64,000 bases of DNA from an uncultured archaeon (GCA_938083505.1 CALKCF010000007.1:46056-110055); one strand, 5' to 3'; shown: positions 31,633-60,129, counted from the first letter of the stretch. Notes: generated by a model not told the origin, from the sequence alone. Numbers and translations are program-made.

Positions 31633-32316
31633 TTGTCAGAGAAAATAGAGGTAATAGTGCCTGAGGAGGGCGAGGTTTTCGACATAGAACTCGAGGAAGA
31701 CTTACTTGAGGCGAATAGAAGAATAGCTGAAGAAAATAAGCAACTTTTAGAAAAGCACGGCGTAAGGGCAATCGATGTAATGGGCTCGGTCGGTTCGGGG
31801 AAGACGACGCTTATTGAGAAGTTAATAGCTCTACTAAAGGACAAGCATAGAATTGCTGTATTCGGTGGCGATGTTACAACGACAATAGACGCCGAAAGAT
31901 TAAGGAAGTCTGGTGCTAAGACGCTACAGATAAACACCGGCAAAGAATGTCACCTTGATGCCAACCTTGTGAGAAAGGCACTGAACAAAATGGACCTGAA
32001 TAACATTGACGTGCTTTTTATAGAAAATGTCGGAAATCTGATATGTCCAGCTGAATTCCCACTCGGAACAGACAGCAGGGTGGTCGTCATAAGCGTGACT
32101 GAGGGCCCTTACACACCATTGAAGCATCCTTACATATTCATGGAGGCGGATGTTGCTGTTATCAATAAGATAGATTTAGCAGAAGCTATGGGTGTGGACG
32201 TTGATGAGCTGGAGGCTAAGATAAGAAAAGTTTCTCCAGACATCGTGGTCGTTAAGACGAGTTGCAAAACCGGTGAAGGTATAGAAAAAGTGGCCAAAGC
32301 GCTAGGTCTGTTGTAG
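31633..32316 (+). CDS. hypB: Hydrogenase nickel incorporation GTPase
   Basis: GSGKT, TGKECHLDA, ENVGNLICPA, NKID; TTG start at 31633 follows an SD-like GAGGGA. Confidence 0.95.
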   Translation: MSEKIEVIVPEEGEVFDIELEEDLLEANRRIAEENKQLLEKHGVRAIDVMGSVGSGKTTLIEKLIALLKDKHRIAVFGGDVTTTIDAERLRKSGAKTLQINTGKECHLDANLVRKALNKMDLNNIDVLFIENVGNLICPAEFPLGTDSRVVVISVTEGPYTPLKHPYIFMEADVAVINKIDLAEAMGVDVDELEAKIRKVSPDIVVVKTSCKTGEGIEKVAKALGLL

Positions 32317-32318
32317 AA

Positions 32319-32690
32319 ATGCACGAGTTCTCCATAATGTCGCAGCTTGTGGAGAGAGTGGTTGAGGAAGCCAGAAAAAGAAATGCAAAGAGGGTTATAG
32401 AGGTTGAGCTATACGTTGGCCAACTATCCTTCCTTAATTCAGAACAGATGCGCTTTGCATACAGTGTGCTTTCCAAGGGTACGATCCTAGAAAATTCTCA
32501 TTTAATCATTAACATAATAGATGCTCGCGTTAAGTGTGAAGTCTGTGGGTTTGATGGTAAGCCAGACTACATCGATGATGCCTCTTATCACGTTTCAGCA
32601 CCCCTCTTCTTATGTCCTGTATGCGGTAGCCCTGTAGAGGTTCTAGAGGGGAGGGGTTGCATTATAAGAAGGGTGAAACTCGAGATTTAG
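32319..32690 (+). CDS. hypA: Hydrogenase nickel metallochaperone
   Basis: MHE start, CEVC and CPVC. Confidence 0.96.
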   Translation: MHEFSIMSQLVERVVEEARKRNAKRVIEVELYVGQLSFLNSEQMRFAYSVLSKGTILENSHLIINIIDARVKCEVCGFDGKPDYIDDASYHVSAPLFLCPVCGSPVEVLEGRGCIIRRVKLEI

Positions 32691-32737
32691 GTATTATGAG
32701 TAGAGTTTATTAGTTAGAGCAGCGCAATTTTATAAAA

Positions 32738-32953
32738 ATGTGTTTGGCAGTACCTGCAAAGGTTGTAGAAAAAGTCGGCAATGTAGCTAAGGTAGATTTT
32801 GGCGATAATACACTTAGAGAGGTAGACGTGTCGCTCGTAGACGTTTCCGTAGGACAATACGTGCTTGTTCACGCAGGCTATGCCATACAGGTGCTTGACG
32901 AAGATGAGGCGCTCAAGACGATAGAGCTATTGTCAGAGATACTTAGCGAATAG
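32738..32953 (+). CDS. hypC: Hydrogenase maturation chaperone
   Basis: MCLAVP, YVLVHAGYA. Confidence 0.97.
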   Translation: MCLAVPAKVVEKVGNVAKVDFGDNTLREVDVSLVDVSVGQYVLVHAGYAIQVLDEDEALKTIELLSEILSE

Positions 32954-32977: not shown

Positions 32978-34063
32978 TTGAGTTTTTTGAAGGAACTCAG
33001 GAATAGGGAGTTAGCATATGCGCTTGTGCGCAAAATTAAGGAGGTCTTCCCAAAGAAACCGATTAAGATATGTCATGTATGCGGCACGCACGAATGGACA
33101 ATAGTCCATTATGGTTTACGTTCACTTCTTCCAGATAATATAGAGCTTATTGCCGGGCCTGGTTGTCCTGTATGCATAACCCCTGCGTTGGACATAGACC
33201 AAGCCGCCGAGCTAGCACTCGAGGGCAAGACTGTTACAGTATTCGGGGACGTGTCAAGATCAGTTGGCGTCAAATACTCCTTAGAGGCTGTGAGGTCAGA
33301 AGGTGGTAACGTGAAGATCGTTTATAGCATACTCGACGCTCTAAAGATAGCTAAATCGGACAAAAGCAAGGAGGTCGTATTCTTCGCAGTAGGGTTCGAG
33401 ACTACTGCTCCACTCACCGCATTGCACATACTTCGGACACCACCAAAAAACTTCTCGATACTCAGCTCGCATAGATACGTGCCACCCGCAGTCATCACCC
33501 TTTACTCCCGTGGTAAGCTGGAAATGGATGGTGTAATAGCGCCAGGTCATGCCACGACGATAAGCGGCTTGAAGACTTACGAGCCCTTAGCTAAAGAGCA
33601 CGGCATTCCCGTCGTTGCCTCCGGTTTCGAGCCTGTGGACGTTCTAATGTCCATAATCATGTTAGTTAAGCAGATATCAGAAGGCAAGGCAGAAGTACTG
33701 AACCAGTATTCAAGGTCTGTTACATGGGAAGGCAATGTTAAGGCGATGCAGACGATTAACCGCGTCTTTGAACTAACTGACGCTCATTGGAGGGGCATAG
33801 GTACGATAGAGCACACGGGCTTCGTCTTGAGGAAGGAGTTTAAGGATTACGATGCAAGATACAAGTACGGCCTGAAGAACGTGAACTATGCCAGCGAGAT
33901 GCATCCAGGATGCAGGTGCGCTGAGATTATGCTTGGAAAGATTAAACCTACGCAGTGCCCACTTTACATGAAAGTATGTAAGCCAAGTAAGCCCGTCGGG
34001 CCGTGTATGGTCTCAATCGAAGGCACGTGTAGAATTTGGGCAACTCATATTGCATTCTCATAA
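32978..34063 (+). CDS. hypD: Hydrogenase maturation protein
   Basis: CGTH, GPGCPVC, GFETT, PGH, GPCMVS.EGTC. Confidence 0.97.
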   Translation: MSFLKELRNRELAYALVRKIKEVFPKKPIKICHVCGTHEWTIVHYGLRSLLPDNIELIAGPGCPVCITPALDIDQAAELALEGKTVTVFGDVSRSVGVKYSLEAVRSEGGNVKIVYSILDALKIAKSDKSKEVVFFAVGFETTAPLTALHILRTPPKNFSILSSHRYVPPAVITLYSRGKLEMDGVIAPGHATTISGLKTYEPLAKEHGIPVVASGFEPVDVLMSIIMLVKQISEGKAEVLNQYSRSVTWEGNVKAMQTINRVFELTDAHWRGIGTIEHTGFVLRKEFKDYDARYKYGLKNVNYASEMHPGCRCAEIMLGKIKPTQCPLYMKVCKPSKPVGPCMVSIEGTCRIWATHIAFS

Positions 34064-34105: not shown

Positions 34106-35221
34106 ATGAATACACGACAAGAATCGCCAGATTACGTAAGAATAAGCCTTGCCGCAGCCATGACCTTAGGGTTGGTGAATGGTACGTTCTTCAGGGGTGC
34201 AACCCTTTATTGCGTTAACCTCCTCTTAACGTACAGTGATGGGTGTATAGGAAGGTGCGCATACTGTGGGCTTTCTAGAAGCAGGGCTTTAGAGAAAGAC
34301 TGGACTGACTACAGCTTCATACGCGTTAATTGGCCGATGGTTAGCTTAGATGAGGTCATTGAAAGGATGGATTCATGTCCGCATGTTGAAAGGGTTTGCA
34401 TCTCGATGGTGACGAATCGCAGGGCACCTAAGGACTGTCTAACTGTCGTCAAGAGATTGCGTGAAAAAACGGACTCGATATCCTGCCTGATAACGCCGAC
34501 AATAATAGACCGTAACTGGCTTGAAGAAATGAAGAGGGCAGGAGCCGATAAGATAGGTATAGCGATAGATGCTGCGACACCAGAGCTTTTCGATAAGCTC
34601 AGGGGTAGATGGGTTGGAGGGCCTCACCGCTGGGAGAAATACTGGAATACAGTCAAAGAGGCTGTAGAAGTATTCGGTAGGTATAATGTCGGTATTCACT
34701 TGATAGTTGGCCTTGGTGAGACAGAAGAGGAGATGGTCAAGTGCATACAAGCAGCTTACGATATTGGCGCATTAACACATCTCTTTTCATTCTTCCCGGA
34801 GGATGGGTCAGTTATGGAAAGGCACCCCCAACCTCCAATCGGACAATATAGGCGCATACAACTTGCCCGTTACTTGATCAATAAGGGTCTAGCGGTCGTT
34901 GACGGCATGCGTTTTGACAGCTCTGGAAGATTGATAGATTTCGGCTTAGAAAAAGATGTGCTCGATGAGGTGATAGAGAGCGGACTTCCGTTTATGACGT
35001 CAGGATGTGCTAGCAAGAAAAGGGATAATGCGTGCAATAGACCCTTCTCGGACTATACACCATACCACGCCCTAATCGGTGAGATGCGCAATTATCCCTT
35101 CGTACCAACAAAGGATGACATTAAACTGATAAGAAGACAGCTACAGGATTATTCAAACATTCCAGTCAAAGTATGGGTGGAAGGGCTAGAAAGTCTATTA
35201 GGTTGTATTGAACATATTTAG
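34106..35221 (+). CDS. lipS2: Radical SAM lipoyl synthase component LipS2
   Basis: CIGRCAYC plus C-terminal TSGC..CNRP, matching the LipS2 TxGC..C(N/D)RP motif. Confidence 0.8.
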   Translation: MNTRQESPDYVRISLAAAMTLGLVNGTFFRGATLYCVNLLLTYSDGCIGRCAYCGLSRSRALEKDWTDYSFIRVNWPMVSLDEVIERMDSCPHVERVCISMVTNRRAPKDCLTVVKRLREKTDSISCLITPTIIDRNWLEEMKRAGADKIGIAIDAATPELFDKLRGRWVGGPHRWEKYWNTVKEAVEVFGRYNVGIHLIVGLGETEEEMVKCIQAAYDIGALTHLFSFFPEDGSVMERHPQPPIGQYRRIQLARYLINKGLAVVDGMRFDSSGRLIDFGLEKDVLDEVIESGLPFMTSGCASKKRDNACNRPFSDYTPYHALIGEMRNYPFVPTKDDIKLIRRQLQDYSNIPVKVWVEGLESLLGCIEHI

Positions 35222-35250: not shown

Positions 35251-36243
35251 ATGGATCAGTGCTTTGGCCTAAAATTTGACGAGCTTAAACCATTGATAGA
35301 AAAAGCGTGGACGATGACGCGTACAAACTTCCCAGAAGAGGTCCATTTCTACTTTCCGGACATGGTGTACATTGAAACATCGTTCTATAGACCCACAAAT
35401 GTTTTTCGCTTCCCTGGAATATCGATAACTGGCACAGTCTGCAGATTACAATGTGATCATTGTAAGGGTGCGCTCTTGAAGAGTATGCTTCATGTAACCA
35501 CACCCGATGCCTTATTTGATGTATGCTTTAGGGTAAAAGAGGCCGGTGGTGTTGGTTGCCTTGTGACTGGCGGTAGCCTTGAAGATGGAAGCGTTCCAAT
35601 AAAGAAATTCATACCTGTGTTAAAGAGGATAAAAGATGAGCTAGGACTTCATGTAGTAGTACACACAGGCTTGGTTGACGAGGAACTTGCTGAAGGTCTG
35701 GCTTATGCTGAAATTGATGCTGTTATGATAGATATAGTAGGCTCTGATGAAACTATAAATGGTGTGCTGAAGTTAAATAAAACAGTTGCAGACTACGAAA
35801 GGTCTTTGAAAAATCTGAAGAAATATGATGTACCTATGGTGCCGCATATAGTTGCTGGCATACATTACGGTCAGATTCTGGGCGAGAAGAAAGCCGTAGA
35901 GATCGTTTCTAAATATAGACCAGAGGCTCTTGTGATAGTTGCTTTGATGCCTCTTGCCAACACACCTATGGAAAACGTCTCCCCTCTTAGCCCGATAGAT
36001 GTCATACGTGTAATTCTTTTTGCTAGGTTTTTAATGCCAAATATTCCTATAACATTAGGCTGCGCCAGGCCAAGAGGTGCGTTAAGGTCTGCGACAGATG
36101 TTTTGGCATTAAAGGCTGGAGTTAACGCCATCGCCTATCCTAGCGAAGAAGCTTACAAGTTTGCAAGAAGACTAGGTCTGAACGTCGTCGTCCATGAGAG
36201 TTGTTGCTCATTGATCTATCGGAATATTGCTTTGAAGGTGTAG
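35251..36243 (+). CDS. lipS1: Radical SAM lipoyl synthase component LipS1
   Basis: SITG..CRLQCDHC, LGCARP and terminal CC, matching the LipS1 GC(M/A)R and CC motifs. Confidence 0.82.
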   Translation: MDQCFGLKFDELKPLIEKAWTMTRTNFPEEVHFYFPDMVYIETSFYRPTNVFRFPGISITGTVCRLQCDHCKGALLKSMLHVTTPDALFDVCFRVKEAGGVGCLVTGGSLEDGSVPIKKFIPVLKRIKDELGLHVVVHTGLVDEELAEGLAYAEIDAVMIDIVGSDETINGVLKLNKTVADYERSLKNLKKYDVPMVPHIVAGIHYGQILGEKKAVEIVSKYRPEALVIVALMPLANTPMENVSPLSPIDVIRVILFARFLMPNIPITLGCARPRGALRSATDVLALKAGVNAIAYPSEEAYKFARRLGLNVVVHESCCSLIYRNIALKV

Positions 36244-36247
36244 TGCA

Positions 36248-37828
36248 TTGCGTCAGTGGAGGCTTATTGATACGGGTCTTAGACCTGCATCTGAGAATAT
36301 GACACTTGATGATGTGATATTGGAATGTAAAGCAAGGAACTTGGTGCCAGATACTGTAAGATTTCTGAGGTTCAGTCCACCAGCGGCCCTCGTTGGGTAT
36401 CACCAAGACGTCTATCAAGAGGTCCGATTGGAGTATGCTAAAGAGAACGGAATAGATGTTAACAGGAGGCTAACAGGAGGTGGTGCTATATACTTTGATA
36501 GCTCTACTATTGGATGGGAGGTGATAGCATCAAAGCGATCACTATGCACGAACTACTCCTTAGAATGGATCTTCAAGACGGTGTGCGAGTGTGTCGTAAA
36601 TGCCCTAAAAGAGTTTGGTTTAGACGCTTGCTTCCGACCTAGGAACGACATAGAGATAAATGGCAGGAAGATATCGGGTACGGGTGGTGTTGAGAGAGGG
36701 GATGCTTTTCTCTTCCAAGGTACACTTCTTGTAGACTTTGATGTCGAGACCATGATAAAGGTTCTAAAGATTCCGATAATAAAACTCAAGGGTAAGGAGC
36801 TCGAATCAGTGAAGAGGAGGGTAACCTGCCTTAAGTGGGAGTTAGGTTATACGCCAGATTATGAGGAGATCAGGAACGCATTAATCAAAGGTTTCAAAGA
36901 AGTTCTTAACATAGAACTCAAATTTGGTGACCTTACTGATTATGAGTTAGAACTTTTTGAAAAAAGTTTACCATGGTTTAGTTCTGAAGAATGGGTGTTC
37001 ATGGATAGACGTTCACCAAAAGGTTCTACTATAGTGCATGCGGTTGATAAGAAGCCAGGTGGTGTCATTCGTGTATCATTGAATGTAGATAAGGATACAA
37101 ACGTTATAAAAAGTGTGCTAATAACAGGTGATTTTTTTATATTCCCACAAAGAGCAATCATGGATCTGGAGGCTGCTCTTAAGTTCATCCCGGCAGATGC
37201 TGATAAGATAAGGGAAATAATTCACAGGGTATTTGAGGAAAAACAGGTTAGGACGCTCAGCTTAACTGAAGGTGACTTCGTGGAGCTTATACTCGAGGCC
37301 TTAGAGAAAACTGAGCTTGAATCTTACGGCATAGATGCTGATGAAATTAACAATATATATCCAATAACAAATGATGTCAAGTCAACATTGAAGAACGGTT
37401 TTGATTATATGCTGTTACCATACTGCTCTAAAATGGTGTCATGTATGTATAGAAAAATTGATGGGTGTATAAAATGTGGTGAGTGTACAGTTGGTGAGGC
37501 ATACCGTTTAGCAGAAGAATTTGGTCTAAAGCCCATAACAATTCATAACTTTGAACACCTAATAGAGGTTTTGAAGGTGATGAAGGTTAAAGGTGCAAGG
37601 GGCTTTATTGGGTGCTGTTGTGAAGCATTCTATGTAAAACATCGTGACGAGATGAGAGAGGTGGGTGTGCCAGGGATAATAATAGATATCGAGGACAAAA
37701 CTTGCTATGACTTGGGAAAGGCAGAAGAGGCATATAGGGGCAACTTCGAGGCCCAGACTAGACTGAATCTGCCCCTCATCAAGAAGATCTTGGTAGCATC
37801 CTTAAAAATGGGTGGTAAAAATGCATAA
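36248..37828 (+). CDS. Lipoate:protein ligase (catalytic plus accessory domain) with C-terminal Cys-rich DUF116-like domain
   Basis: RRLTGGGAIY, NDI, KISGTG, QGTL; ITGDFF accessory domain; PYC..C..C..CG.C..GCCC tail. Confidence 0.88.
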   Translation: MRQWRLIDTGLRPASENMTLDDVILECKARNLVPDTVRFLRFSPPAALVGYHQDVYQEVRLEYAKENGIDVNRRLTGGGAIYFDSSTIGWEVIASKRSLCTNYSLEWIFKTVCECVVNALKEFGLDACFRPRNDIEINGRKISGTGGVERGDAFLFQGTLLVDFDVETMIKVLKIPIIKLKGKELESVKRRVTCLKWELGYTPDYEEIRNALIKGFKEVLNIELKFGDLTDYELELFEKSLPWFSSEEWVFMDRRSPKGSTIVHAVDKKPGGVIRVSLNVDKDTNVIKSVLITGDFFIFPQRAIMDLEAALKFIPADADKIREIIHRVFEEKQVRTLSLTEGDFVELILEALEKTELESYGIDADEINNIYPITNDVKSTLKNGFDYMLLPYCSKMVSCMYRKIDGCIKCGECTVGEAYRLAEEFGLKPITIHNFEHLIEVLKVMKVKGARGFIGCCCEAFYVKHRDEMREVGVPGIIIDIEDKTCYDLGKAEEAYRGNFEAQTRLNLPLIKKILVASLKMGGKNA

Positions 37829-38891
37829 GTTTGACGTGATAGTGGTTGGTGGTGGCCCTGCAGGTACTGCGTGTGCGATCAGATGTGCTAAAATGGGATT
37901 CAGGACAATGTTATTGGAAAAATCAACAAGTTACAGAAAGAAATTCTGCGGCGGCGTCACACCAACCGTAACAAGAAATTTGATAGAATTCGAGCTAGGG
38001 TTGAGAATACCTCAATCGGTGCTGTCTGTCCCAGAAAGTTTAGGACTTTTCTACGTACCTCCCAGTGGGAAGTGCAACGGTGGTACAATGAAGAATTATA
38101 AATTACTTAATTTGCGTAGGGTTGACTTTGACGAATGGTTAAGGGAAGAGGTTAAGACACATAACGTCGACCTTTTATACCGTGCAGAATTTCTCGAGTT
38201 GAAGTTAGGAAAGGATAACCTGTTAAAGGTGAATGTGAATGGTAGTCTGGAGGTCTTTGAAGCTACTTATGTGGTTGGTGCTGACGGGGCTATTTCAAAA
38301 GTTCGTTCTTGCCTGTTTCCAAACTATAGGTCTAAAATACTCACTGTTGTACAAGAAGTTTGGGAGGGGGAAGGAGACTTTAAAGATAATTTTTACATAA
38401 TTCTTAACAGCAAAATCGTGCCAACTTATGGTTACGTAATTCCTAAAGACGGAAAAATTCTTGTAGGTTTTGGCTTTGAAAGTGGAAGGATTAACTTGCA
38501 GCTTTGTATGACCAAACTTTTGAGTTTACTAAAAGATGAGTTTTCGTTCAAACCTGTGGAGATGAGTGCAAGAGAAATCGCACCCGTACCGTTCGCTATT
38601 TCACCTATAGGTCTCGAGAATGTCGTACTCGTTGGAGATGCCTGTGGGTTATGTAACCCCTTCTCAGGAGAAGGTATAAGATTTGCGATCGAGAGTGGTG
38701 TGGCCGCTGCGGAATCTATTAAGATATCACAAGAAGAGAACGCAAAGTTGACATCGGTTTATGAATCAAAAATAGATGGGTTAAGGGATTTTTTGCTCAG
38801 AATGTATGCATTCGTAAACGAGCTTGATGATGAAAAGAGAGAGGATTTCGTCAGGAAGGAACTGTCACGCCTTAACGTATTCGGTATATAA
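37821..38891 (+). CDS. FAD-dependent oxidoreductase of the geranylgeranyl reductase family; LipT-like by context
   Basis: GGGPAG, CGG, GADG, VGDACG..NPFSGEGI; overlaps the ligase stop. Confidence 0.75.
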   Translation: MHKFDVIVVGGGPAGTACAIRCAKMGFRTMLLEKSTSYRKKFCGGVTPTVTRNLIEFELGLRIPQSVLSVPESLGLFYVPPSGKCNGGTMKNYKLLNLRRVDFDEWLREEVKTHNVDLLYRAEFLELKLGKDNLLKVNVNGSLEVFEATYVVGADGAISKVRSCLFPNYRSKILTVVQEVWEGEGDFKDNFYIILNSKIVPTYGYVIPKDGKILVGFGFESGRINLQLCMTKLLSLLKDEFSFKPVEMSAREIAPVPFAISPIGLENVVLVGDACGLCNPFSGEGIRFAIESGVAAAESIKISQEENAKLTSVYESKIDGLRDFLLRMYAFVNELDDEKREDFVRKELSRLNVFGI

Positions 38892-41654: not shown

Positions 41655-41739
41655 AACACAAGCTAATTATTTTTAAAGAATTTTAAAAAATAAGTTAATG
41701 TTTATTTGTAATTAGGTTTGATAAAAAAATGTGGTAGTT

Positions 41740-44806: not shown

Positions 44807-44819
44807 CACGTCCTCATGC

Positions 44820-45239: not shown

Positions 45240-45353
45240 AATAGTGCTTAATTACAGTGCTATATCATTCGTAACTTATTGTTTCATATAGCTGACAAAT
45301 ATCACGTATACGCTATATATAAATATCAGGCTTGCCGTTTTCACATAGAGAAT

Positions 45354-47634: not shown

Positions 47635-47639
47635 ACCTT

Positions 47640-48258: not shown

Positions 48259-48289
48259 GTGCTTCCACCACGAAAGTATGTTTACAGCA

Positions 48290-48668: not shown

Positions 48669-48812
48669 GCTTGTTCTCCTCAGATATCGCGAGAATGCAG
48701 TAGAGTATAACCTACGTCGTATAAAGACTTAGCATGATATGCTGAGTTATGTATGTGTCAGTTTAACAGGAAGTGCAATATCTTAAAATAAAAACAAAAA
48801 CCTTAGAAAATT

Positions 48813-51427: not shown

Positions 51428-52884
51428 GGACGCTTTATCTCAGCTACGAGCCTTCCATTCGTATCATATATGCGTACATCAAGTGGTATTTGACCTGGCA
51501 ATGCGTGCGTTCCACAAGCCAAACATGGATCGTAGGCTCTAAATGCCATCTCTATCATGTTAAGTAAACCGTCGCTTATCTTACCGTAACTTATGAGCTG
51601 TTGTGCAGCCTTCTTCACAGACATACATATACCTGCGTTGTTGTGGGTCGTTGCAACTATTAGGTTAACGTTGGTTAATATGCCGTCTTGGTCGGTCTTG
51701 TAATGGTGTATAAGCGTACCCCTTGGTGCCTCAACGACACCGACCCCCTCGCTTGGGGTGTCTGTTAGAGGAACCCTGAAGTCCTTTCCGGTTATGTCAG
51801 GGTCTCTGCTTAACTCAAGCACCCTTTCAGCGGCATTAAGTATCTCTATAACCCTCGCCCAATGGTATCCAAGCGTCGCATGAGCTGGCTTACCCAGGGT
51901 TTCTTTGAAGTTTTCGTAGGCTTCTTGTGCAAGTGGTGTTGCAAATCCATCAGCTACATTAAGTCTACCAAGAGGTCCTACTCTATACACACCGGACGCT
52001 TCGCCGTCAACTATTCCTTTCCAACCCAAATTCTTTAAGTATGGGAACTTAAGATAGGTCCATGGTTCTACATGCTCGCCTATATAATTGAGATAGTCTT
52101 TTGGATGGAATTCTGCGTAGATTCTTCCCTTAGGATCTACAATCCTGATCTTTCCGTCATAATAGTTTACTAGACCCTTTCCGTCAACCAAGCCCATATA
52201 GTAGGTCGCATGCTTATACACGTCGCCCATAATTAGGTCAAGGTACTTCTGGTTCTTAAGAACGGCATCCTCGAGTATCTTTAGTGTAAATTGGCCGAAT
52301 TCCACGAGTTTTTTCGCTCCTTCTTCTATTTCTTTTCTGTCATCTTCTGTCAAAAGTTTAGAGACACCACCCGGAACGGCGCAATTCGGTATTATTGCCC
52401 TACCGGCAAGTTTTTCCAAAAGCCTCGTGGCAATCATCCTGGCATTTATTACCTTCTTTCCAGTCTCTAGACCAATCTTTCCAATAAGACCAAGAATGTT
52501 CCTTTCAGCCCTGGGTGCATCAGGTCCAACAACGAAGTCCGGTGCAGAAAGTGTATAGAATACTGCTGAGTGGTCATGTATGTAAAATATATTGTAGGCC
52601 ATTTCCCGTATCTTCTTAGCGGTCTCTGGCAAATTAGCACCGTAAACAGCATCCACTGCCTTCGCTGATGCCATATGGTGTGCCCACGGGCAGACACCGC
52701 AGATCCTTGGTGTTATTATTGGCATCTCTTCCACGGGCCTTCCTATGCAGAACCTTTCGAAGCCTCTGAACTCGACTACTTGGTAATAGGCATCCTTAAC
52801 ATTGCCGACCTCGTCCAAAAATATTGAAATCTTTCCGTGCCCTTCAAGCCTAGTTATAGGTTGAATCGTTACAACCTTCTTCAT
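51424..52884 (-). CDS. mvhA: Group 3c [NiFe]-hydrogenase large subunit
   Basis: TRLEGH, RICGVCPWAH, EAPRG, DPCLACGTH plus cleavable tail. Confidence 0.95.
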   Translation of the reverse strand: MKKVVTIQPITRLEGHGKISIFLDEVGNVKDAYYQVVEFRGFERFCIGRPVEEMPIITPRICGVCPWAHHMASAKAVDAVYGANLPETAKKIREMAYNIFYIHDHSAVFYTLSAPDFVVGPDAPRAERNILGLIGKIGLETGKKVINARMIATRLLEKLAGRAIIPNCAVPGGVSKLLTEDDRKEIEEGAKKLVEFGQFTLKILEDAVLKNQKYLDLIMGDVYKHATYYMGLVDGKGLVNYYDGKIRIVDPKGRIYAEFHPKDYLNYIGEHVEPWTYLKFPYLKNLGWKGIVDGEASGVYRVGPLGRLNVADGFATPLAQEAYENFKETLGKPAHATLGYHWARVIEILNAAERVLELSRDPDITGKDFRVPLTDTPSEGVGVVEAPRGTLIHHYKTDQDGILTNVNLIVATTHNNAGICMSVKKAAQQLISYGKISDGLLNMIEMAFRAYDPCLACGTHALPGQIPLDVRIYDTNGRLVAEIKRP

Positions 52885-53858
52885 TCTCTAACACCCCATA
52901 CCCTGCGCAGTATTGATCTTGGTAAACTATATCTGTAAAAGATTCCTAACGGGTCCTTTATCTGTAATATGATTTTTCTGATCTCTTCATCACTCATGCC
53001 TGTTTCAACCTCTAGCCCTATCACAGAAGACAGGGCGGATAACATCCTAGCACCTTGGTCTTGGGACTCTGGTGTCGGTCCCATGCAACCCCTACAAGGA
53101 ACGTTCACTGTTAGACATACGGCATCACAACCACCTCTAGTCGCAGGACCCATACAGATTATACCCTGCTCAAGGAGGCATTTCTCTGGATCTGGGATGG
53201 ACTGGTGATAACGCTTTATTTCTGTTATCCTTTTCTCCTCACGGATATGTTTACACTCATCACAGACAGACTTCATCGAACCGAACACTGTCCCTTTTGG
53301 TGGGAGCTTTCCAGAAAGTGCAGCAGTTAATACTTCATCCACCAACTTAAGGGGTGGTGGGCAACCTGGTAGGTAATAATCTACATCAACCACTTGATTA
53401 AGCGACTTAACGGTCTCAAGAAGTTCCGGTATCGTTAGCTCTTCACCATCAAGCCTTGTCAGCTTACAGGGTACCGTTCCCTGCTGATTAATGGTGCTTA
53501 AACTCTTTACGTATGCTTTTTGAAGAAGACCATCTTTTGAGGCGAAATTTGCAAGTCCGGGTATACCACCAAAACAAGCACAAGCTCCAAACGCTATGAG
53601 GTTTTTTGCCTTTCTCCTTGCAAGTTTGGCCATCTCTTTCGTCTCGTCATTGTTCACGGCTCCCTCAAAGAGTACAATGTCTATAGAGCCATCTGGTAAC
53701 CTCTCTAAGTCCTCTAACTTTAGGTCAACAGCAGTTGGCCAATAAGCTACCTCCACAGACATTAAGACTTCGATAATTTTCTCACCCAAGTCTAAGAGCG
53801 AATAATCACAACCAGCACAGTTTGCCCCAGGTATTATGGCCAGCTTTGGCTTGTTCAA
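52881..53858 (-). CDS. mvhG: [NiFe]-hydrogenase small subunit
   Basis: CAGC, GACA, PGCPP, CDEC, C.GP..CRGC. Confidence 0.93.
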   Translation of the reverse strand: MNKPKLAIIPGANCAGCDYSLLDLGEKIIEVLMSVEVAYWPTAVDLKLEDLERLPDGSIDIVLFEGAVNNDETKEMAKLARRKAKNLIAFGACACFGGIPGLANFASKDGLLQKAYVKSLSTINQQGTVPCKLTRLDGEELTIPELLETVKSLNQVVDVDYYLPGCPPPLKLVDEVLTAALSGKLPPKGTVFGSMKSVCDECKHIREEKRITEIKRYHQSIPDPEKCLLEQGIICMGPATRGGCDAVCLTVNVPCRGCMGPTPESQDQGARMLSALSSVIGLEVETGMSDEEIRKIILQIKDPLGIFYRYSLPRSILRRVWGVRE

Positions 53859-54295
53859 ACTACTTCTACCTCCTCCTTTAGTTTTTCTGCAATACGGTTT
53901 GGCCCTAACTTCTTTATCTGCTCGACAAATTCTTTCGCAATGTTAGCAAACCTTTCTCCTTCTGGTGCGGAAATCCATTCTAGCCTCACCCTACCTTTCT
54001 CAATACCAAATTGTTCAAGCAACTTATCCAGCAACAACATCCTTTTTCTGGTTTTATAATTTCCGGATATGTAATGACAATCGCCGGGGTGACAACCAGT
54101 CACGAGGACGCCGTCAGCACCGTTCGCGAGAGCCTCTAGTATATATACTGGATTAATCCTACCGGAGCACATCACCCTTATTACTTTGAGGTTGTGGGGA
54201 TACTGTACCCGACTTGTTCCGGCTAAGTCAATTCCAGCATAAGAACACCAGTTACATGCAAAAACCACTATATTTGGTTCAAAATTCTCTACCAT
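53855..54295 (-). CDS. mvhD: Hydrogenase [2Fe-2S] subunit
   Basis: CNWCSY, MCSGR, GCHPGDCHY. Confidence 0.96.
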   Translation of the reverse strand: MVENFEPNIVVFACNWCSYAGIDLAGTSRVQYPHNLKVIRVMCSGRINPVYILEALANGADGVLVTGCHPGDCHYISGNYKTRKRMLLLDKLLEQFGIEKGRVRLEWISAPEGERFANIAKEFVEQIKKLGPNRIAEKLKEEVEVV

Positions 54296-54300
54296 TTTAA

Positions 54301-56280
54301 TCACCTCGTAAGTGCCCTTACCATCGCTAAAATCTGATCATCACTGAACCCGAGCTGTTGGGCGGCTCCGGATGGACATGCGGCCGCACATACTCCACAA
54401 CCTTTGCACTTGCTTATATCAACACTTGCAACTTGCTTTCCATCCTCTTTCTTAACCAAAGATATAGCATCGAAAGCACACAAGGGTTGACATATGCCAC
54501 AACCGCTGCACAAGTCTTCATTAATCGAGGCCACGTAAGGTACGGTTTCTACATAACCCTTTGACATCAGCGCTATGGCTGAAGACGCTGCAGCACCTGC
54601 CTGAGCCACAGTATCGGGTATGTCCTTTGGTCCTTGCACCGCACCGGCTAGGAATACTCCATCAACAGATGTCTCTGTAGGTCTAAGCTTTGGATGCAAC
54701 TCTAACGCAAAACCATCTGGACCTATCGAACATTTTAGCAGTTTAGCCAATTCTTTGAATGTCGTGTGGGGGACTACACCAGTCTCAAGGACAACTAGGT
54801 CTGGCCTGAGTGTTACGACCCTATTTGTGTTTGCATCGAATACATCAAAATAGAGGCTTCCATCAGCGTCTTGCAGTATCTCCATCGGGCTACCTCTTAT
54901 AAACTTAACATTTTCATAATTCCTAATTCTTTCGTAGAACTCTTCGTAACCTTTCCCGAAGGTCCTAATGTCCCTATAACATATGTAGACTTCCGCATCC
55001 GGTATGTAACTTACTATATAGTAAGCATGTTTTATTCCTGCTACACATCCAAACCTGCAACAGTATCTAAGGTGTTTTTCATCCCTTGAACCAACACAAA
55101 GAATTATCGCAACCTTCTTCGGCTCCTTTCCATCACTTGGTCTTACTATGTGACCTTTCGTTGGTCCTGAAGCCGAGACTAACCTTTCTAATTCTAATCC
55201 AGTAATCACGTCTTTATACTTACGGTAACCATATTCCGGCATGGTCTTTGCGACATCGTATAAACTATAGCCGGTGGCTAAAATTATCACACCAACTTCC
55301 AGTTCCACTTCTTCTGGTTTCTGGTTAAAATCTATAGCTTTAGTGGGACAGAACCTCTCGCAGGCTCTACACGTCCCCTTCTGGAAATACATACAGTGTT
55401 CAGGGTCAATTACAGGAATAAGCGGTACGGCCTGTGGAAATTCAAAGTATATTGCCTTTCTTTTCCCAAGCCCCAACTCGAACTCGCTCGGTGCAGTCCA
55501 TGGACATTTTGTGACACATACGCCACAACCAGTGCATTTTGTCGCATCCACGTATCTTGGTTTCTTCAATAATTTAACCTTAAAGTTCCCAACAGAACCA
55601 CTGATGTCCACAACATCTGTATAGGTGCGAAGTATGATGTTTGGGTGTCTGCTTACTTCCACCATCAAAGGTGTTAGTATACATTGGGAGCAGTCGAGCG
55701 TTGGAAAAGTCTTATCCAATCTTGCCATGTTCCCTCCTATGCTAGGTCTCGTCTCGACCAGGTGAACTTGGAAACCAGCATTTGCTATGTCAAGTGAGGC
55801 CCTAATACCGGCTATTCCACCGCCTATAACAAGTGCTTTTGGTATTACCTTTACTTTCTCCACATTCAGCGGTTTTAAAAGCCTAGCTTTGGCGATTGCT
55901 GCATTAACTAGTTTAATGGCCTTATCTGTTGCTGCATCTTTTTCCTTTTCGTGAACCCAAGAACAGTGTTCCCTTATATTAGCCATCTCAAAAAGGTAGG
56001 GATTAAGACCGCCCTCTTCAACAGCTTTTTGGAAAGTTGGTTCATGCATTCTTGGTGAGCAAGCAGCTACGACGACCCTGTTGAGGTGGCGCTGTTTTAT
56101 GTCTTCGATTATCATATTCTGACCTGGCTGAGAGCACATGAATTGATACTCCTTTGCAACCACGACGTTCGGCACTTTTGATACCTCTTCAATAACTTTA
56201 TTTATGTCAACTACAGATGCTATGTTTAGACCACAGTGGCATACATAAACACCTATCCTGATTTCTTCACTTTCAACCAT
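54301..56280 (-). CDS. hdrA: Heterodisulfide reductase flavoprotein subunit A
   Basis: CHCG.NI, CSPRMHE, NIREHC, GGGIAG, LDKTFPTLDCSQC, HPKLRP, ferredoxin motifs. Confidence 0.97.
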   Translation of the reverse strand: MVESEEIRIGVYVCHCGLNIASVVDINKVIEEVSKVPNVVVAKEYQFMCSQPGQNMIIEDIKQRHLNRVVVAACSPRMHEPTFQKAVEEGGLNPYLFEMANIREHCSWVHEKEKDAATDKAIKLVNAAIAKARLLKPLNVEKVKVIPKALVIGGGIAGIRASLDIANAGFQVHLVETRPSIGGNMARLDKTFPTLDCSQCILTPLMVEVSRHPNIILRTYTDVVDISGSVGNFKVKLLKKPRYVDATKCTGCGVCVTKCPWTAPSEFELGLGKRKAIYFEFPQAVPLIPVIDPEHCMYFQKGTCRACERFCPTKAIDFNQKPEEVELEVGVIILATGYSLYDVAKTMPEYGYRKYKDVITGLELERLVSASGPTKGHIVRPSDGKEPKKVAIILCVGSRDEKHLRYCCRFGCVAGIKHAYYIVSYIPDAEVYICYRDIRTFGKGYEEFYERIRNYENVKFIRGSPMEILQDADGSLYFDVFDANTNRVVTLRPDLVVLETGVVPHTTFKELAKLLKCSIGPDGFALELHPKLRPTETSVDGVFLAGAVQGPKDIPDTVAQAGAAASSAIALMSKGYVETVPYVASINEDLCSGCGICQPLCAFDAISLVKKEDGKQVASVDISKCKGCGVCAAACPSGAAQQLGFSDDQILAMVRALTR

Positions 56281-57155
56281 TAGACCTTCACCTCCTCGAG
56301 TAAAACTTCAACCGGACTCATGTTTAGATTTATTCCTAGTTCCTTTTTATCTAAACCTAAAGCAAGACCTAATAATTGCGTATAGTAAAGTGCCGGAATC
56401 GAAATACTCTGGTCACCGGTTATCGTCTTAGCAGCATCTTGCTTTCCATCAAACATATCTATACAATATGGACATAGACTGGTTATTGCTCTTGAGCCCA
56501 CAGCCAATGTCCTTTTTATCCTCGTTGCCACAACTCTTATTGCCGCCTCCGGCGAGTAGGGAAGAATAGCTGCTCCGCAACATTCATATTTTTCAGGATA
56601 ATCTCTTGCCTTAAGACCTATGGCCTCTATTAATCTATCTAATTTTAGCGGACCGTTTCTTGTCTCTGGCCTCGGGAACTCTGTCGGTCTAACCAGATGA
56701 CAGCCGGGATGAGAGGAAACCGGCATTTCCGGCAACTTTCTCTTTATCGCGGATGCTATCTTCTCGACGCCTATCCTATCATGTAAAACTTCTACCGGAT
56801 GATAAACTGTTGCTCTGCCTGTGTACTCTAATCCCTCATCTTTAAGAAGCTCGTTCACAGCACTCATAAGAGGCGGATTCAACTTTAGCATGTATATCGT
56901 TTCCGTTAAGTTTAAATGACAACCGTTACATGGTGCAATAATATCTAAACCTTGCGACTCAGCCAACGCCATAATCCTTGCACAAGCATAATACGGATAA
57001 AACTTACTTATGCCCTTCATTGGAACTCCACAACAGTTCATATCTTTAGGATACTCTAATTCTACACCTAACAATGGTAACGTAGCCCTTAGAGACAACT
57101 CGTAACCATACTGCTTCGTTGCGGTAGTACAACCTAAATAAAGCAAAAATTTCAT
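56280..57155 (-). CDS. hdrB: Heterodisulfide reductase subunit B
   Basis: LGC, CCG, CNGC, HPGCH, CCG, CPYC. Confidence 0.93.
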   Translation of the reverse strand: MKFLLYLGCTTATKQYGYELSLRATLPLLGVELEYPKDMNCCGVPMKGISKFYPYYACARIMALAESQGLDIIAPCNGCHLNLTETIYMLKLNPPLMSAVNELLKDEGLEYTGRATVYHPVEVLHDRIGVEKIASAIKRKLPEMPVSSHPGCHLVRPTEFPRPETRNGPLKLDRLIEAIGLKARDYPEKYECCGAAILPYSPEAAIRVVATRIKRTLAVGSRAITSLCPYCIDMFDGKQDAAKTITGDQSISIPALYYTQLLGLALGLDKKELGINLNMSPVEVLLEEVKV

Positions 57156-57676
57156 TAAACAATCCCCTTTAGCTTTTCAAAACCTACTAATAAGACGTGT
57201 TGCTTGAATTTCTCAATATCTTTCGGTTTTGGCATCTCAGGTAAGCCCAGCTCTGTCCTAGAAACTTCTTCAAAATCCTTAGACATTATATACATGGGTT
57301 TCTGAATGTGGCCGAGCTCTAGTATGGATTTTGCCATTTCTACAAAGGATTTTGGAGGCGCTCTTCCCCTTACGATAGCCTCATTCCTGAGTGCCATTAC
57401 TACTTCAAACGGTGAGAGTCTTTGAGGGCAATATTCCGCACACTTTAAGCATGCCGAGCATGCCCATATCACGTCACTATTTATAAGCTCGTCAGAGTAG
57501 CCTGCCTTCACCAAGGCTACTATCTCGTGAGGTCTATACTTGTCAACGACCTTTGCAGCCGTGCATCCGCTGGAACACTTCATGCATTGATAGCATAATT
57601 GTGGCCTAAGCTCCTTTACTGTATCTTCCAAGGAGAATTTGAACGTAAGAATCAGCCTCCTACTCAAAATAAACAT
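57155..57676 (-). CDS. hdrC: Heterodisulfide reductase subunit C
   Basis: CYQCMKCSSGC, WACSACLKCAEYCPQ. Confidence 0.93.
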   Translation of the reverse strand: MFILSRRLILTFKFSLEDTVKELRPQLCYQCMKCSSGCTAAKVVDKYRPHEIVALVKAGYSDELINSDVIWACSACLKCAEYCPQRLSPFEVVMALRNEAIVRGRAPPKSFVEMAKSILELGHIQKPMYIMSKDFEEVSRTELGLPEMPKPKDIEKFKQHVLLVGFEKLKGIV

Positions 57677-57837
57677 AACTTCTTAAATTTAAATTTCAAG
57701 TATATTTATAATAAGCTTTATTAAAAAACTAATAATGTAAATACTTTAATTATCAAAAAAAGCTCTGGTCTGGTATTGATTAACATCGTTAGGTAGGTAT
57801 ATATTTATTAGATTGATGTTGAAGATGGGTGTAGTTG

Positions 57838-60129
57838 ATGAAAAATATTAGAGCAGAAATCAGGGTTTCGGGCATAGTCCAAGGAGTAGGCTTTAGACCG
57901 TTCGTTTATAGAATCGCTGTTAATAGGGGGCTTAAAGGATTCGTCCAGAACCTAAAGGACGCGTCGGTTAGGATAATCGTAGAAGGACCTGAATCAGACA
58001 TAAAGTCATTCTTAGAAGCTCTGGTTAAGGAGAAACCACCTTTAGCTCGTATAACCAAGAGTGACGTGAGCTACTTAGAGTCAAATAATGAGTTCGTGGA
58101 GTTTAAGATACTAGAGAGCTCAAAGCAAAGTTTAGTCGCAGGCTCTGTGATACCGGCAGATGTGGCAATATGCGACGATTGTGTTAGAGAGCTCCTAGAT
58201 CCTGTTGATAGACGATTCGGCTACTTCTTTATAACATGTACAAATTGTGGACCAAGATTCACTATAATATTGGACACACCATACGACAGGCAAAATACAT
58301 CCATGAGAGATTTTCCGATGTGTGAAGTGTGTATTTCTGAATATGAGGATCCCTTAAACAGGAGGTTTCATGCACAAACGATTGCGTGTTCCAAATGCGG
58401 TCCAAAAGTTTATCTAACAACCAATGATGGGGAGTTAGTTACATGTAAAGAACCGATAAAGGAAGCCGCTAAGCTTATTGACGAAGGATACATAGTAGCA
58501 ATAAAGGGGAACGGTGGCTTTCATGTGGCAACAGCAACGACAATCTCAGAGCCCATAATAAGGCTTAGGAAGGCTAAGCATAGACGACAGAAACCTTTTG
58601 CAATAATGGCTAAAGATTTGAAGACCATAAGATCTTTTGCTATTGTTAGTGAGCAAGAGGAAGAACTGCTCACGTCCCTAGCGCGCCCTATCGTTTTATT
58701 ACGCAAAAGCGAGGACTACTATCTATCTAAAGAGATAGCACCAGGTCTCCATAACATAGGCGTAATGCTACCATATACAGGCTTGCATCTTCTATTGCTA
58801 CTTAATAGTAAGGAGCCAGCGTACGTGATGACAAGCGCAAACCCGTCAGGTGAGCCGATAGTTATACAAAATCAAGAAGCCTATGTAAGAATCAAAAGGG
58901 ACGTTGACTACATGCTCCTTCATGATCGGGAAATTGTTAACAGATGCGATGATTCCGTTGTAAGGGTTGTTGACGGCTCTATAAGCTTTATACGCCGTTC
59001 AAGGGGTTATGCGCCAGAACCAATTATTTTATCATATGAATATAACAAAAATATCTTTGCTTTAGGAGGTGAACTTAACGTTACTGCTTGTATCCTTATG
59101 GGCGATAAGGCGTTCTTAACGCAACATATTGGTGACATAGAATGTGTAGAAACTTATGAGTTTTTGAAGTCGGCAATTCACCACCTTGCTAAGCTTACCA
59201 GAGCGCAGCCAGAAGTGATAGCTCACGATCTACATCCAAGTTTTCATACAACCAGACTCGCAGAGGAACTAGCTGAAAAGTTTAAGATACCAGCGTTACC
59301 TGTCCAGCATCACCACGCGCACGTTGCCTCAGTAATGGCAGAATACGGATTAGAAGAAGTTATAGGAATAGCGTGCGACGGGTTCGGTTATGGTAGCGAT
59401 GGCTTAGCGTGGGGTGGTGAAGTTCTTTTATGCGATGATAACGGTTATCGTCGTATGGGACATCTGGAGAATCATCCAATGCCAGGTGGTGATCTTGCGA
59501 CAAAGTATCCAATAAGGATGGCCGCGGGAATACTATTTGGGTCAAATTTATGTGAGGAATGGTTATTTTTGAATGCTGATAAACTTCCAAGAGGAAGATA
59601 CGAAGCAGAATTAATATTAAAACAGCTCAAGAATGGAAAAAATATAAAGACTTCGAGCGTTGGTAGGATTTTGGATAGTGTTGCAGCCATATTAGGTATA
59701 TGTTACGAGAGAACCTACGAAGGTGAACCTCCCATGAAGCTCGAGTCCGCAGCAATAGGTGGCTCGGACATCTTGAGGCTTAAACCAGAAATAAAAGGCA
59801 GGGTCTTGAACACAAAATGCTTGGTAGAATCAATTGCGGAAATAGCGATAAAAGGATTGGATCCAAAGAAGGTAAGAGACCTTGCTTTCTCAGCCCAGAA
59901 TTATCTGGCAGTAGGCTTAGCTGAGCTTGCATTGGAAATAGCAATCAGTGAAGGTGTGAAGAACATTGCTTTCACGGGTGGTGTGGCATACAACGAACAA
60001 ATAATGGCGACGGTACGGCGAATTGTTGAGGTTAGAGGTTTTAGGTTCTATACAAATACGAGGGCTCCACCCGGTGATGGTGGGCTCTCGCTCGGTCAAG
60101 CAGCAATCGCAGCTAAATTGAGCAATTAG
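57838..60129 (+). CDS. hypF: Hydrogenase maturation carbamoyltransferase
   Basis: VQGVGFRPF acylphosphatase domain, zinc fingers, QHHHAH, GDGGLSLGQ. Confidence 0.97.
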   Translation: MKNIRAEIRVSGIVQGVGFRPFVYRIAVNRGLKGFVQNLKDASVRIIVEGPESDIKSFLEALVKEKPPLARITKSDVSYLESNNEFVEFKILESSKQSLVAGSVIPADVAICDDCVRELLDPVDRRFGYFFITCTNCGPRFTIILDTPYDRQNTSMRDFPMCEVCISEYEDPLNRRFHAQTIACSKCGPKVYLTTNDGELVTCKEPIKEAAKLIDEGYIVAIKGNGGFHVATATTISEPIIRLRKAKHRRQKPFAIMAKDLKTIRSFAIVSEQEEELLTSLARPIVLLRKSEDYYLSKEIAPGLHNIGVMLPYTGLHLLLLLNSKEPAYVMTSANPSGEPIVIQNQEAYVRIKRDVDYMLLHDREIVNRCDDSVVRVVDGSISFIRRSRGYAPEPIILSYEYNKNIFALGGELNVTACILMGDKAFLTQHIGDIECVETYEFLKSAIHHLAKLTRAQPEVIAHDLHPSFHTTRLAEELAEKFKIPALPVQHHHAHVASVMAEYGLEEVIGIACDGFGYGSDGLAWGGEVLLCDDNGYRRMGHLENHPMPGGDLATKYPIRMAAGILFGSNLCEEWLFLNADKLPRGRYEAELILKQLKNGKNIKTSSVGRILDSVAAILGICYERTYEGEPPMKLESAAIGGSDILRLKPEIKGRVLNTKCLVESIAEIAIKGLDPKKVRDLAFSAQNYLAVGLAELALEIAISEGVKNIAFTGGVAYNEQIMATVRRIVEVRGFRFYTNTRAPPGDGGLSLGQAAIAAKLSN

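Follow-up and report, generated by a model that had tools for sequence, protein, structure and literature searches.

A candidate lipoyl carrier encoded with MvhADG-HdrABC and HdrD modules in a Terraquivivens-related archaeon

Among known systems, the sHdr system of sulfur oxidisers with its lipoate-binding protein LbpA is the closest to the gene island described here, the carrier type and the lipoate assembly genes being common to both. LbpA is described as essential for the sHdr system, and most LbpA proteins have two conserved cysteines, one N-terminal and one C-terminal, which are absent in some archaeal LbpA (PMC6067878). A GcvH protein encoded in a hydrogenase-Hdr cluster of Culexarchaeia has been speculated to carry a disulfide (Kohtz 2022, PMC9723716), while the GcvH-like protein of Hyphomicrobium denitrificans probably donates to OsmC (bioRxiv 10.64898/2026.10.01.755906, citing Nyvltova 2016 and Cussiol 2010). 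Beyond Kohtz 2022, a literature search found, in the accessible portions of the papers, no proposal of GcvH as a disulfide carrier for Hdr and, among the papers listed, none joining MvhADG with a lipo- term; the accessible text of Buessecker 2022 (PMC9246946) contains no mention of Hdr, Mvh or lipo-. The island lies in a stretch of 64,000 nucleotides from an uncultured archaeon (contig C7:46056-110055; hereafter the window, meaning the whole stretch analysed), and contains a GcvH-like protein, GcvH1, encoded together with lipoate assembly genes, the MvhADG-HdrABC complex and further HdrD modules.

The genome of this hot-spring archaeon (1.154 Mb in 10 contigs, 98.5% complete) has as its closest named relatives the metagenome-assembled genomes of Candidatus Terraquivivens (Caldarchaeales; ligase genes 78-87% identical). 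The island extends from hypB (starting at 31552) to hypF (ending at 60129), and its gene content was confirmed by open reading frame (ORF) calls, Pfam and NCBIfam, each gene listed in a preliminary description of the window being found in its place. That description proposed that protein-bound lipoamide replaces the heterodisulfide and is reduced by H2 through HdrABC and re-oxidised by membrane HdrDE. The tie between a lipoyl carrier and canonical-type Hdr modules is well supported by synteny, while the probability that GcvH1 is a dedicated protein-bound lipoamide carrier, acting as the dithiol/disulfide partner of these modules, is put at about 50%. What HdrABC-MvhADG and HdrD-like proteins reduce where CoM-S-S-CoB and DsrC are lacking is an old question of anaerobic bioenergetics, for which a lipoylated GcvH-like carrier is a testable candidate.

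The GcvH1 subfamily and its Hdr neighbourhoods

GcvH1 (41731-42168, + strand; Pfam) retains the lipoyl lysine and contains no cysteine. In GcvH1 and its best homologues this lysine is followed by tryptophan or, more rarely, tyrosine (KW and KY types), while canonical GcvH has the motif ESVKA; in an alignment of 22 KW-type carriers, all 22 have Lys73 and Trp74. In a maximum-likelihood tree of 83 GcvH-like proteins (IQ-TREE), canonical GcvH forms one clade with 100/100 support (39 rows, 37 with the lysine and 2 Lys-less), whereas all 36 KW/KY rows, GcvH1 included, fall outside it, as do 8 Lys-less rows from Terraquivivens. Many genomes contain one canonical and one KW-type carrier together. GcvH1 (111.7 bits) and the carrier of locus L056 (76 bits) fail the cut-off of the gcvH equivalog TIGR00527 (115.85), while the canonical GcvH of the congener G059 passes it (155.2 bits). 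By motif, tree and score, GcvH1 is assigned to a distinct subfamily and is no ordinary H protein, the marker of these carriers being Lys-Trp at the lipoylation hairpin together with a position outside the canonical GcvH clade.

A GcvH1 search was run against 401 genomes of the phylum, and 60 contexts outside the genus were fetched and scanned by tblastn with the island proteins, where an Hdr-type match means E 1e-6 or better over at least 100 amino acids (aa); rows from the own genus and Lys-less rows were excluded from the counts by carrier type. The 31 KW/KY carrier genes come from 20 families and have an Hdr-type gene within 10 kb in 22 cases, within 5 kb in 21 and within 1 kb in 15, so that 13 of the 20 families are represented at 5 kb. 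For canonical GcvH (34 genes, also 20 families) the same distances give 4, 3 and 0 cases, and 3 of 20 families are represented at 5 kb. Of the 31 KW carriers, 14 have a dedicated ligase or LipS gene no more than 5 kb away. The genes gcvH-hdrC-hdrB-hdrA-mvhD-mvhG-mvhA-lplA-glcD abut one another in L056, and gcvH heads an hdrCBA-mvhDGA run in L052; such a run adjoins HdrD-GlcD-carrier in L074 and, followed by the protease gene, adjoins OsmC and the carrier in L070. In L026 the carrier is accompanied by HdrD and by two fusion proteins, HdrA-MvhD and GlcD-HdrD, while L036 has the carrier, LipS1, LipS2, a ligase-DUF116 fusion and LipT amid two HdrBC pairs, two HdrA-MvhD pairs and GlcD-HdrD. On metagenome contigs scanned with a carrier alignment, KW-type carriers occur on 27 loci, and an Hdr-type gene is nearby on 12 of them, 9 of these 12 being among the 14 loci that reach 4.4 kb or more; among the canonical-type rows such a neighbour was found for 4 of 55, and two of these four are second genes on KW loci. 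The adjacency of KW carrier and Hdr genes, on whose conservation the preliminary description had made its proposal depend, thus recurs far beyond the genus, and this cross-lineage synteny is the main new support for the pairing.

That the KW carriers are plain LbpA of an sHdr system is rejected for L026, L031, L036, L056, L070 and L074, where HdrA is full-length (650-665 aa aligned) and accompanied by MvhD, while the KY-type rows of families f2 and f51 (L067, L075) could be sHdr-like. Another arrangement is found in L066 (G217; 7786-14770) and in the metagenome locus L093, which contain, in one row, LipS2, LipS1, a GcvH with the canonical motif, an Lpd-like flavoprotein disulfide reductase, MvhG and MvhA, with no HdrBC; rows of the L066 type may represent a hydrogenase-lipoyl link bypassing Hdr. 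In three further genomes of family f33 (G353, G229 and G328), a GcvH match and an MvhA match share a contig and are at most 10 kb apart.

The preliminary description counted two carriers lacking the lysine. One of them, GcvH2 (44820-45239, - strand; Lys replaced by Met; Pfam and alignment), is intact here and is the first gene of cassette a; the other, GcvH3, is decayed here and is intact in three congeners. Neither would be able to carry lipoate, and both probably serve as structural or regulatory partners of their HdrD cassettes. At L164 (G358, family f15; 3574-5262), a Lys-less GcvH-like gene (Lys replaced by Met) is divergent from a gene resembling regulator 2 of the island (AbrB/PhoU-type, 28-29% identity), and this pair, which mirrors the GcvH2/regulator-2 pair of the window, adjoins hdrBC-mvhD-hdrA-mvhAG; the same two tblastn matches occur at L167 (G323). 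In L027 and L028, a Lys-less GcvH of the canonical clade (Lys replaced by Asp) is encoded 4-6 kb upstream of the KW carrier. The KW carrier of L027 (G040, from a sister family of the same order; 10435-11064) is directly followed by a protein of the AhpC/TSA-Redoxin family; L028 comes from G039.

Hydrogenase, Hdr and lipoate assembly genes of the island

The genes hdrC, hdrB and hdrA (54301-57676), mvhD, mvhG and mvhA (51424-54304) and the hydrogenase maturation protease gene (50957-51427), all on the - strand and identified by Pfam and NCBIfam, overlap or abut one another in this order. MvhA keeps both Ni-Fe cysteine pairs (RxCGxC and DPCxxC) and a 29-residue tail for the maturation protease, and the hydrogenase features agree with group 3c [NiFe] MvhA and MvhG accompanied by MvhD; the NCBIfam matches are VhuA (427 bits), VhuG (228 bits) and FlpD (E 1.6e-57), all NCBIfam scores being below equivalog cut-offs. 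HdrB contains two complete five-Cys CCG motifs, where all 10 cysteines are invariant in 12 of 12 sequences, and can be aligned from end to end with the methanogen subunit 5odc_B (E 6e-48). HdrC has two Fe-S motifs and HdrA is long (659 aa) with FAD and ferredoxin domains, as in the methanogen-type proteins. From these motifs the Mvh-Hdr enzymes look functional. A complex prediction of HdrB with GcvH1, with an alignment for each, gave a score of 0.00 with no control runs, which speaks neither for nor against binding.

Lipoate assembly genes are embedded in the hydrogenase maturation genes. On the + strand, hypB (31552-32316), hypA (32319-32690), hypC (32738-32953) and hypD (32978-34063), all identified by Pfam as [NiFe]-hydrogenase maturation genes, are followed by lipS2 (34106-35221), lipS1 (35251-36243), the lipoate-protein ligase gene (36248-37828) and the gene of a LipT-like FAD protein of the geranylgeranyl-reductase family (37812-38891), which together form one co-directional run of eight genes with gaps of at most 47 bp; this run is retained in the congeners G057, G059 and G060. 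LipS1 scores above its NCBIfam cut-off (235.5 bits, cut-off 230), while LipS2 (225.6 bits, cut-off 270), the ligase (TIGR00545, 177 bits, cut-off 280) and the LipT-like protein (152.7 bits, cut-off 158.8) score below theirs; all four also have Pfam matches. The ligase, which has the catalytic and C-terminal domains of LplA, is fused to a Cys-rich DUF116 domain, about nine cysteines falling in the final 135 residues. A distant family has this fusion as well (L036, 11619-13169; 54% identity over 517 aa), and in the congener G060 the gene is split into two frames. The remaining maturation genes are hypE (38893-39939, - strand; Pfam and TIGR02124, 386.5 bits) and hypF (57835-60129, + strand; TIGR00143, 862.6 bits).

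Upstream of osmC and gcvH1 lies the gene of regulator 1 (40137-41147, + strand; Pfam), which has an AbrB/SpoVT-type N-terminal domain. The OsmC-family thiol peroxidase (41199-41654, + strand; Pfam) has four cysteines, including Cys 61 and Cys 127, which we take to be the catalytic pair, and its gene, co-directional with gcvH1, ends 76 nt upstream of it. The OsmC match in G057 (L013, 9967-10408) consists of two overlapping tblastn segments (53% and 43% identity) and may be frameshifted. Regulator 2 (45332-46438, + strand), which contains AbrB and PhoU domains and is divergent from GcvH2, is 36-40% identical to regulator 1 orthologues, in agreement with the two paralogous regulators described previously.

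The flavoprotein-HdrD pair and the HdrE-HdrD-like pair of the preliminary description, the latter called intact there, are both present, with complete CCG motifs in the HdrD proteins. Cassette a contains, behind GcvH2, a GlcD-like FAD dehydrogenase/oxidase (43379-44809, - strand), identified by Pfam, NCBIfam and a solved-structure match, and HdrD_a (42208-43377, - strand). HdrD_b (48813-50030, - strand) forms an HdrDE-type pair with a NarI-like HdrE, a cytochrome-b-type membrane subunit (50027-50794, - strand; Pfam and NCBIfam). Both HdrD_a and HdrD_b, assigned by Pfam, NCBIfam and motif check, have two Fer4 domains and two complete five-Cys CCG motifs each, and their best NCBIfam match is the thiol:fumarate reductase subunit TfrB, far below the cut-off. 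The nearest solved relative of the GlcD-like flavoprotein is LctD, a lactate dehydrogenase subunit (7qh2_C, E 1e-28); together with the TfrB match, this makes dihydrolipoyl-dependent reduction of a 2-oxoacid, or the reverse reaction, a reasonable guess. In L026, GlcD and HdrD are fused as one protein of 903 aa.

A third HdrD cassette (cassette c; 46376-48770, - strand) is indeed decayed, as described earlier. It comprises a broken GcvH3, membrane-protein remnants and HdrD_c, the last broken into three ORFs (46447-47634, - strand; Pfam), while the remnants of the membrane protein and of this third GcvH-like gene lie at 47697-48668 (- strand). Compared with the intact copy of G059, it has an inverted piece of 111 bp (48290-48400), missing stretches of 149 and 199 bp and 59 gap positions. 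The cassette (GcvH3, a membrane protein of 281 aa and HdrD_c) is intact in the congeners G056, G059 and G060. The 281-aa multi-helix membrane protein encoded between GcvH3 and HdrD_c (L010, 9843-10688, in G059; remnants at 47697-48290 of the window) is matched by neither Pfam nor NCBIfam and may represent a new kind of membrane anchor for an HdrD.

Five of the seven genomes of the genus have all three of the island HdrA, the ligase-DUF116 fusion and GcvH1, and the other two have none of them; this co-occurrence is weak evidence because the island is one contiguous block. G057 keeps the lip genes, regulator 1, OsmC, GcvH1, GcvH2, regulator 2 and Mvh-Hdr, and is without GlcD-HdrD_a, cassette c and HdrE-HdrD_b. 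These module losses suggest that the invariant core couples the carrier to Mvh-HdrABC and not to the membrane module, so that the membrane HdrDE limb, to which the preliminary description assigned the re-oxidation of the carrier, appears dispensable and that part of the proposal is weakened. The two congeners without the island (G058:C22:47589-60991; G061:C7 and C27) have a different Mvh-HdrA locus (HdrA 47-49% and MvhA 58% identical), and in G058 the TusA and DsrE genes are found about 7 kb from it, so that a second Mvh-Hdr type might use another thiol or sulfur carrier.

The island is flanked by unrelated genes, encoding quinolinate phosphoribosyltransferase, a TrmB regulator, a UPF0182 protein and a radical-SAM protein. 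The last of these, which has an HMPTM-type N-terminal zinc ribbon (29821-31389, - strand), is divergent from hypB, and its gene has no link to the island at any other locus examined.

Proposed role of GcvH1 and alternative explanations

The known users of lipoate and the known Hdr substrates were sought in the genus. GcvP (GDC-P) was found in none of seven genus genomes, while 33 of 76 genomes of the order are positive, and GcvT (GCV_T) in none of six; McrA, the sole CoM-S-S-CoB marker sought, and DsrC were each found in none of seven, which extends to the genus the absences that the preliminary description reported for the window. The E2 catalytic domain was not found in this genome, although one of five congeners is positive, and hence no P protein, T protein or oxoacid dehydrogenase E2 was met here as the user of the carrier whose presence in the genome would have told against the proposal. 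McrA and DsrC were likewise each found in none of the five genomes carrying the linked loci L056, L052, L070, L074 and L036 outside the genus. TusA (4 matches) and DsrE-like (2 matches) genes are present in this genome on contigs C1, C2 and C3, and neither on the island nor on contig C7; general Pfam scans of the island found no rhodanese, with no search aimed at it.

A second lipoylation route is encoded next to the window. A canonical lipA-lpd-lipB operon occupies contig C7:43225-46252, of which the 3' end of lipB falls in the window (1-197, + strand) while lpd ends 559 bases upstream of it. LipA (TIGR00510, 368 bits, cut-off 310.25), LipB (TIGR00214, 176.9 bits, cut-off 83.55) and Lpd (TIGR01350, 515.6 bits, cut-off 408.8) all exceed the equivalog cut-offs, and the genome thus has an E3 and two lipoylation routes; the earlier statement that no E3 gene is in the window is literally true, but lpd sits just outside. 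The only GCV_H and Biotin_lipoyl matches of this assembly fall in the island. Canonical GcvH is present in six of six congeners, and in G059 its gene lies 5.2 kb beyond the point matching the start of contig C7. About 15 kb of G059 (L009, 1-15367), which stop exactly at this point, have no counterpart in this assembly at DNA or protein level; besides the canonical gcvH, they contain housekeeping genes, including a pyrF/pyrE-type fusion, two ADP-forming acetyl-CoA synthetase-type genes, TldD and prephenate dehydrogenase. The canonical gcvH is therefore likely to be missing here because of an assembly gap at the start of contig C7, and to regard GcvH1 as the sole lipoylatable protein is unsafe. 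Lpd, encoded with lipA and lipB 41 kb from the carrier, probably pairs with the canonical GcvH of the congeners.

In the proposed mechanism, GcvH1 would be an LbpA-like GcvH paralogue of the KW type with its own LipS1/LipS2-ligase-LipT assembly line, and we infer its lipoylation, its docking to either HdrB or HdrD and the direction in which electrons move. The non-cubane Fe-S (CCG) sites of HdrB, within MvhADG-HdrABC, would reduce or oxidise the swinging lipoyl-lysine, a step that would link H2, ferredoxin and the lipoyl/dihydrolipoyl couple. The CCG sites of HdrD_a would join the carrier to a D-2-hydroxyacid/2-oxoacid couple via GlcD, and those of HdrD_b would join the same carrier to the membrane via HdrE. 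Dihydrolipoyl-GcvH1 would also supply the adjacent OsmC peroxidase, and the carrier would trade electrons with NAD(H) through Lpd. The potential of lipoamide is about -290 mV, compared with about -140 mV for CoM-S-S-CoB, about -320 mV for NAD, about -414 mV for H2 and about -450 to -500 mV for ferredoxin. With these values, bifurcation or confurcation through lipoamide would be feasible with little driving force, energetically like the NADH/ferredoxin-dependent hydrogenases. If the carrier has this role, the LbpA-Hdr partnership would be extended from aerobic sulfur oxidisers to electron-bifurcating Hdr in anaerobic archaea, and protein-bound lipoamide would be a general redox shuttle. It is possible, but unlikely, that in a set of non-methanogenic Thermoproteota a dedicated lipoyl protein is the physiological disulfide of HdrABC-MvhADG and the HdrD modules, and that with Lpd, NADH and reduced ferredoxin would be interconverted with 2 H2 through dihydrolipoyl-GcvH, as a [NiFe] counterpart of the confurcating hydrogenases, with GlcD-HdrD, HdrE-HdrD and OsmC plugging 2-hydroxyacid/2-oxoacid, a membrane carrier and peroxides into the same thiol pool.

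Several observations weigh against GcvH1 as a dedicated Hdr partner. Outside the genus, 59 MvhA matches reach 55% identity or more, and among 20 of these loci that were fetched (57-61% identity), a GcvH-like gene lies within 10 kb in only two, being Lys-less in the one that was read (L164); a lipoyl carrier as the general Mvh-Hdr partner across the phylum is thus unsupported. In genus g4, from the same family, Mvh-HdrA is present (53-54% identity) without a KW carrier or such a ligase. The Lys-less GcvH-like genes beside Hdr modules (GcvH2, GcvH3 and the f15 case) cannot use lipoate, and part of the GcvH-Hdr linkage may hence be structural or regulatory. The contexts counted above were picked by similarity to GcvH1, and related genomes are non-independent; 9 of the 31 KW-type contexts have no Hdr match within 10 kb, two of them being L027 and L028, where an AhpC/TSA-like gene follows the carrier in L027 and probably also in L028. 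The presence of Lpd, LipA and LipB weakens the argument from the absence of other lipoate users, and with canonical GcvH probably lost in the assembly gap, GcvH1 is not safely the only lipoyl protein. On the potentials given above, lipoamide lies far below CoM-S-S-CoB and would offer a much smaller driving force for bifurcation from H2. Finally, OsmC directly upstream of GcvH1, together with a bona fide Lpd, would provide a sufficient, simpler and already known role.

This role, in which electrons pass from NADH through Lpd, lipoyl-GcvH1 and OsmC to hydroperoxides (ROOH) and the position within the island reflects shared regulation or history, is the best of the alternatives, though doubtful as the only function of GcvH1. 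The gene set of a lipoyl-dependent OsmC/Ohr peroxidase is complete, as OsmC with its cysteine pair, a lipoylatable H-type protein and an Lpd above the equivalog cut-off are present and the P and T proteins were not found, while osmC and gcvH1 follow each other closely behind regulator 1. OsmC stands beside the carrier in a second lineage (L070), an AhpC/TSA-like gene follows the KW carrier in L027 and probably in L028, and probable donation from the GcvH-like protein of H. denitrificans to OsmC has been described in print (bioRxiv 10.64898/2026.10.01.755906). However, OsmC lies within 10 kb of only one of the 31 KW carriers outside the genus, compared with 22 of 31 for Hdr-type genes, and a solely antioxidant function accounts neither for gcvH at the head of hdrCBA-mvhDGA runs (L052, L056) nor for the lip genes within the hyp run; moreover, lpd, encoded beside lipA and lipB at a distance of 41 kb, probably serves canonical GcvH. 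If the carrier feeds OsmC only, the island would be a further, modest example of an antioxidant arrangement that is already known.

It is quite unlikely that GcvH1 handles sulfur in the manner of sHdr-LbpA, presenting or accepting sulfane sulfur, for example in H2-driven reduction of sulfur or polysulfide or in sHdr-like oxidation. This explanation draws on the closest characterised system, where LbpA and the same LipS1/S2-ligase-LipT set are paired with an Hdr-like complex (PMC6067878, PMC10332631), on the four TusA and two DsrE-like matches of the genome, and on the congeners G058 and G061, whose other Mvh-HdrA locus, with TusA-DsrE about 7 kb away, suggests interchangeable thiol or sulfur carriers. 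Against it, neither TusA nor DsrE is found on the island or its contig, the Hdr is of the single long-HdrA type with MvhD and not shdrC1B1AHC2B2, and GcvH1 has no cysteine while two are conserved in most LbpA (PMC6067878). The absence of any functional link, GcvH1 being a leftover or spare H protein or a lipoyl-relay hub co-located on a mosaic island, would agree with the variability of the island (three modules missing in G057, cassette c decaying here, two of seven congeners without the island) and with the 18 of 20 other Mvh-Hdr loci without a GcvH-like gene, but is very improbable given the adjacency in 13 of 20 families compared with 3 of 20 for canonical GcvH and its repetition on metagenome contigs, the invariant Lys-Trp, the ligase or LipS gene within 5 kb of 14 of 31 KW carriers, and the failure to find an E2, P or T protein as relay recipient.

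Comparison with known systems

In the sHdr-LbpA systems of Hyphomicrobium denitrificans, Thioalkalivibrio, Aquificae and Sulfolobales, as in the island, the genes of an Hdr-type complex are accompanied by that of a GcvH-like lipoate-binding protein and by dedicated genes for LipS1/LipS2, lipoate-protein ligase and LipT, the canonical LipB/LipA route being present in the same genome. The island differs in having a single hdrCBA with a 659-aa HdrA of the methanogen type, followed by mvhDGA and the protease, in place of shdrC1B1A-hyp-C2B2 with a short HdrA, and in the additional GlcD-HdrD and HdrE-HdrD modules. Its cluster is without sulfur transferase genes, its carrier is without cysteine and its ligase is fused to DUF116, while the host is a small-genome member of a family described from an anaerobic fermenter and not a sulfur oxidiser. 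The MvhADG-HdrABC complex of methanogens (5ODC) has the same subunit set and gene order, the ten CCG cysteines of HdrB and the Ni-Fe ligands of MvhA, whereas the lipoyl carrier and its assembly genes belong to the island, and the hdr-mvh run of two other lineages begins with the carrier gene; since McrA was not found in the genus, CoM-S-S-CoB is an unlikely substrate.

The Culexarchaeia cluster of Ehe hydrogenase, HdrBC and HdrA2B2C2 (Kohtz 2022) also belongs to a non-methanogenic member of the Thermoproteota and contains GcvH within a hydrogenase/Hdr cluster; however, the hydrogenase there is of the membrane-bound group 4, with SdhA and CdhA, while that of the island is a cytoplasmic group 3c Mvh, and the accessible text of that paper reports no lipoate assembly genes, carrier subfamily or cross-lineage count. 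In the hydrogenosome of Trichomonas vaginalis, where OsmC occurs with the H and L proteins of an incomplete glycine cleavage system, and among the Ohr/OsmC peroxidases, the likeness lies in OsmC adjoining a lipoylatable H-type protein, with Lpd present and P and T proteins not found, whereas the carrier of the island is from the KW subfamily with its own LipS1/S2 pathway and stands amid Hdr and hydrogenase genes, lpd being 41 kb off. The glycine cleavage system itself, with P and T alongside H and L, was not found in the genus genomes searched (GDC-P in none of seven, GCV_T in none of six).

Thiol:fumarate reductase TfrAB and the D-2-hydroxyacid dehydrogenases of the GlcDEF or LctD type share with the island a flavoprotein combined with an HdrD-like Fe-S/CCG subunit, but the island proteins score far below the family cut-offs and their cassette is headed by a GcvH-like gene, which is Lys-less in the window and lipoylatable in L026, L074 and family f29. 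The membrane thiol:quinone modules of the HdrDE/DsrMK type have the pair of HdrD and a NarI-like protein in common with the island, while their substrate DsrC was found in none of the seven genus genomes. By its sequence features, the island fails the sHdr gene set, the clustered sulfur transferases and the LbpA cysteines, and fits the methanogen Mvh-Hdr in all respects but Mcr.

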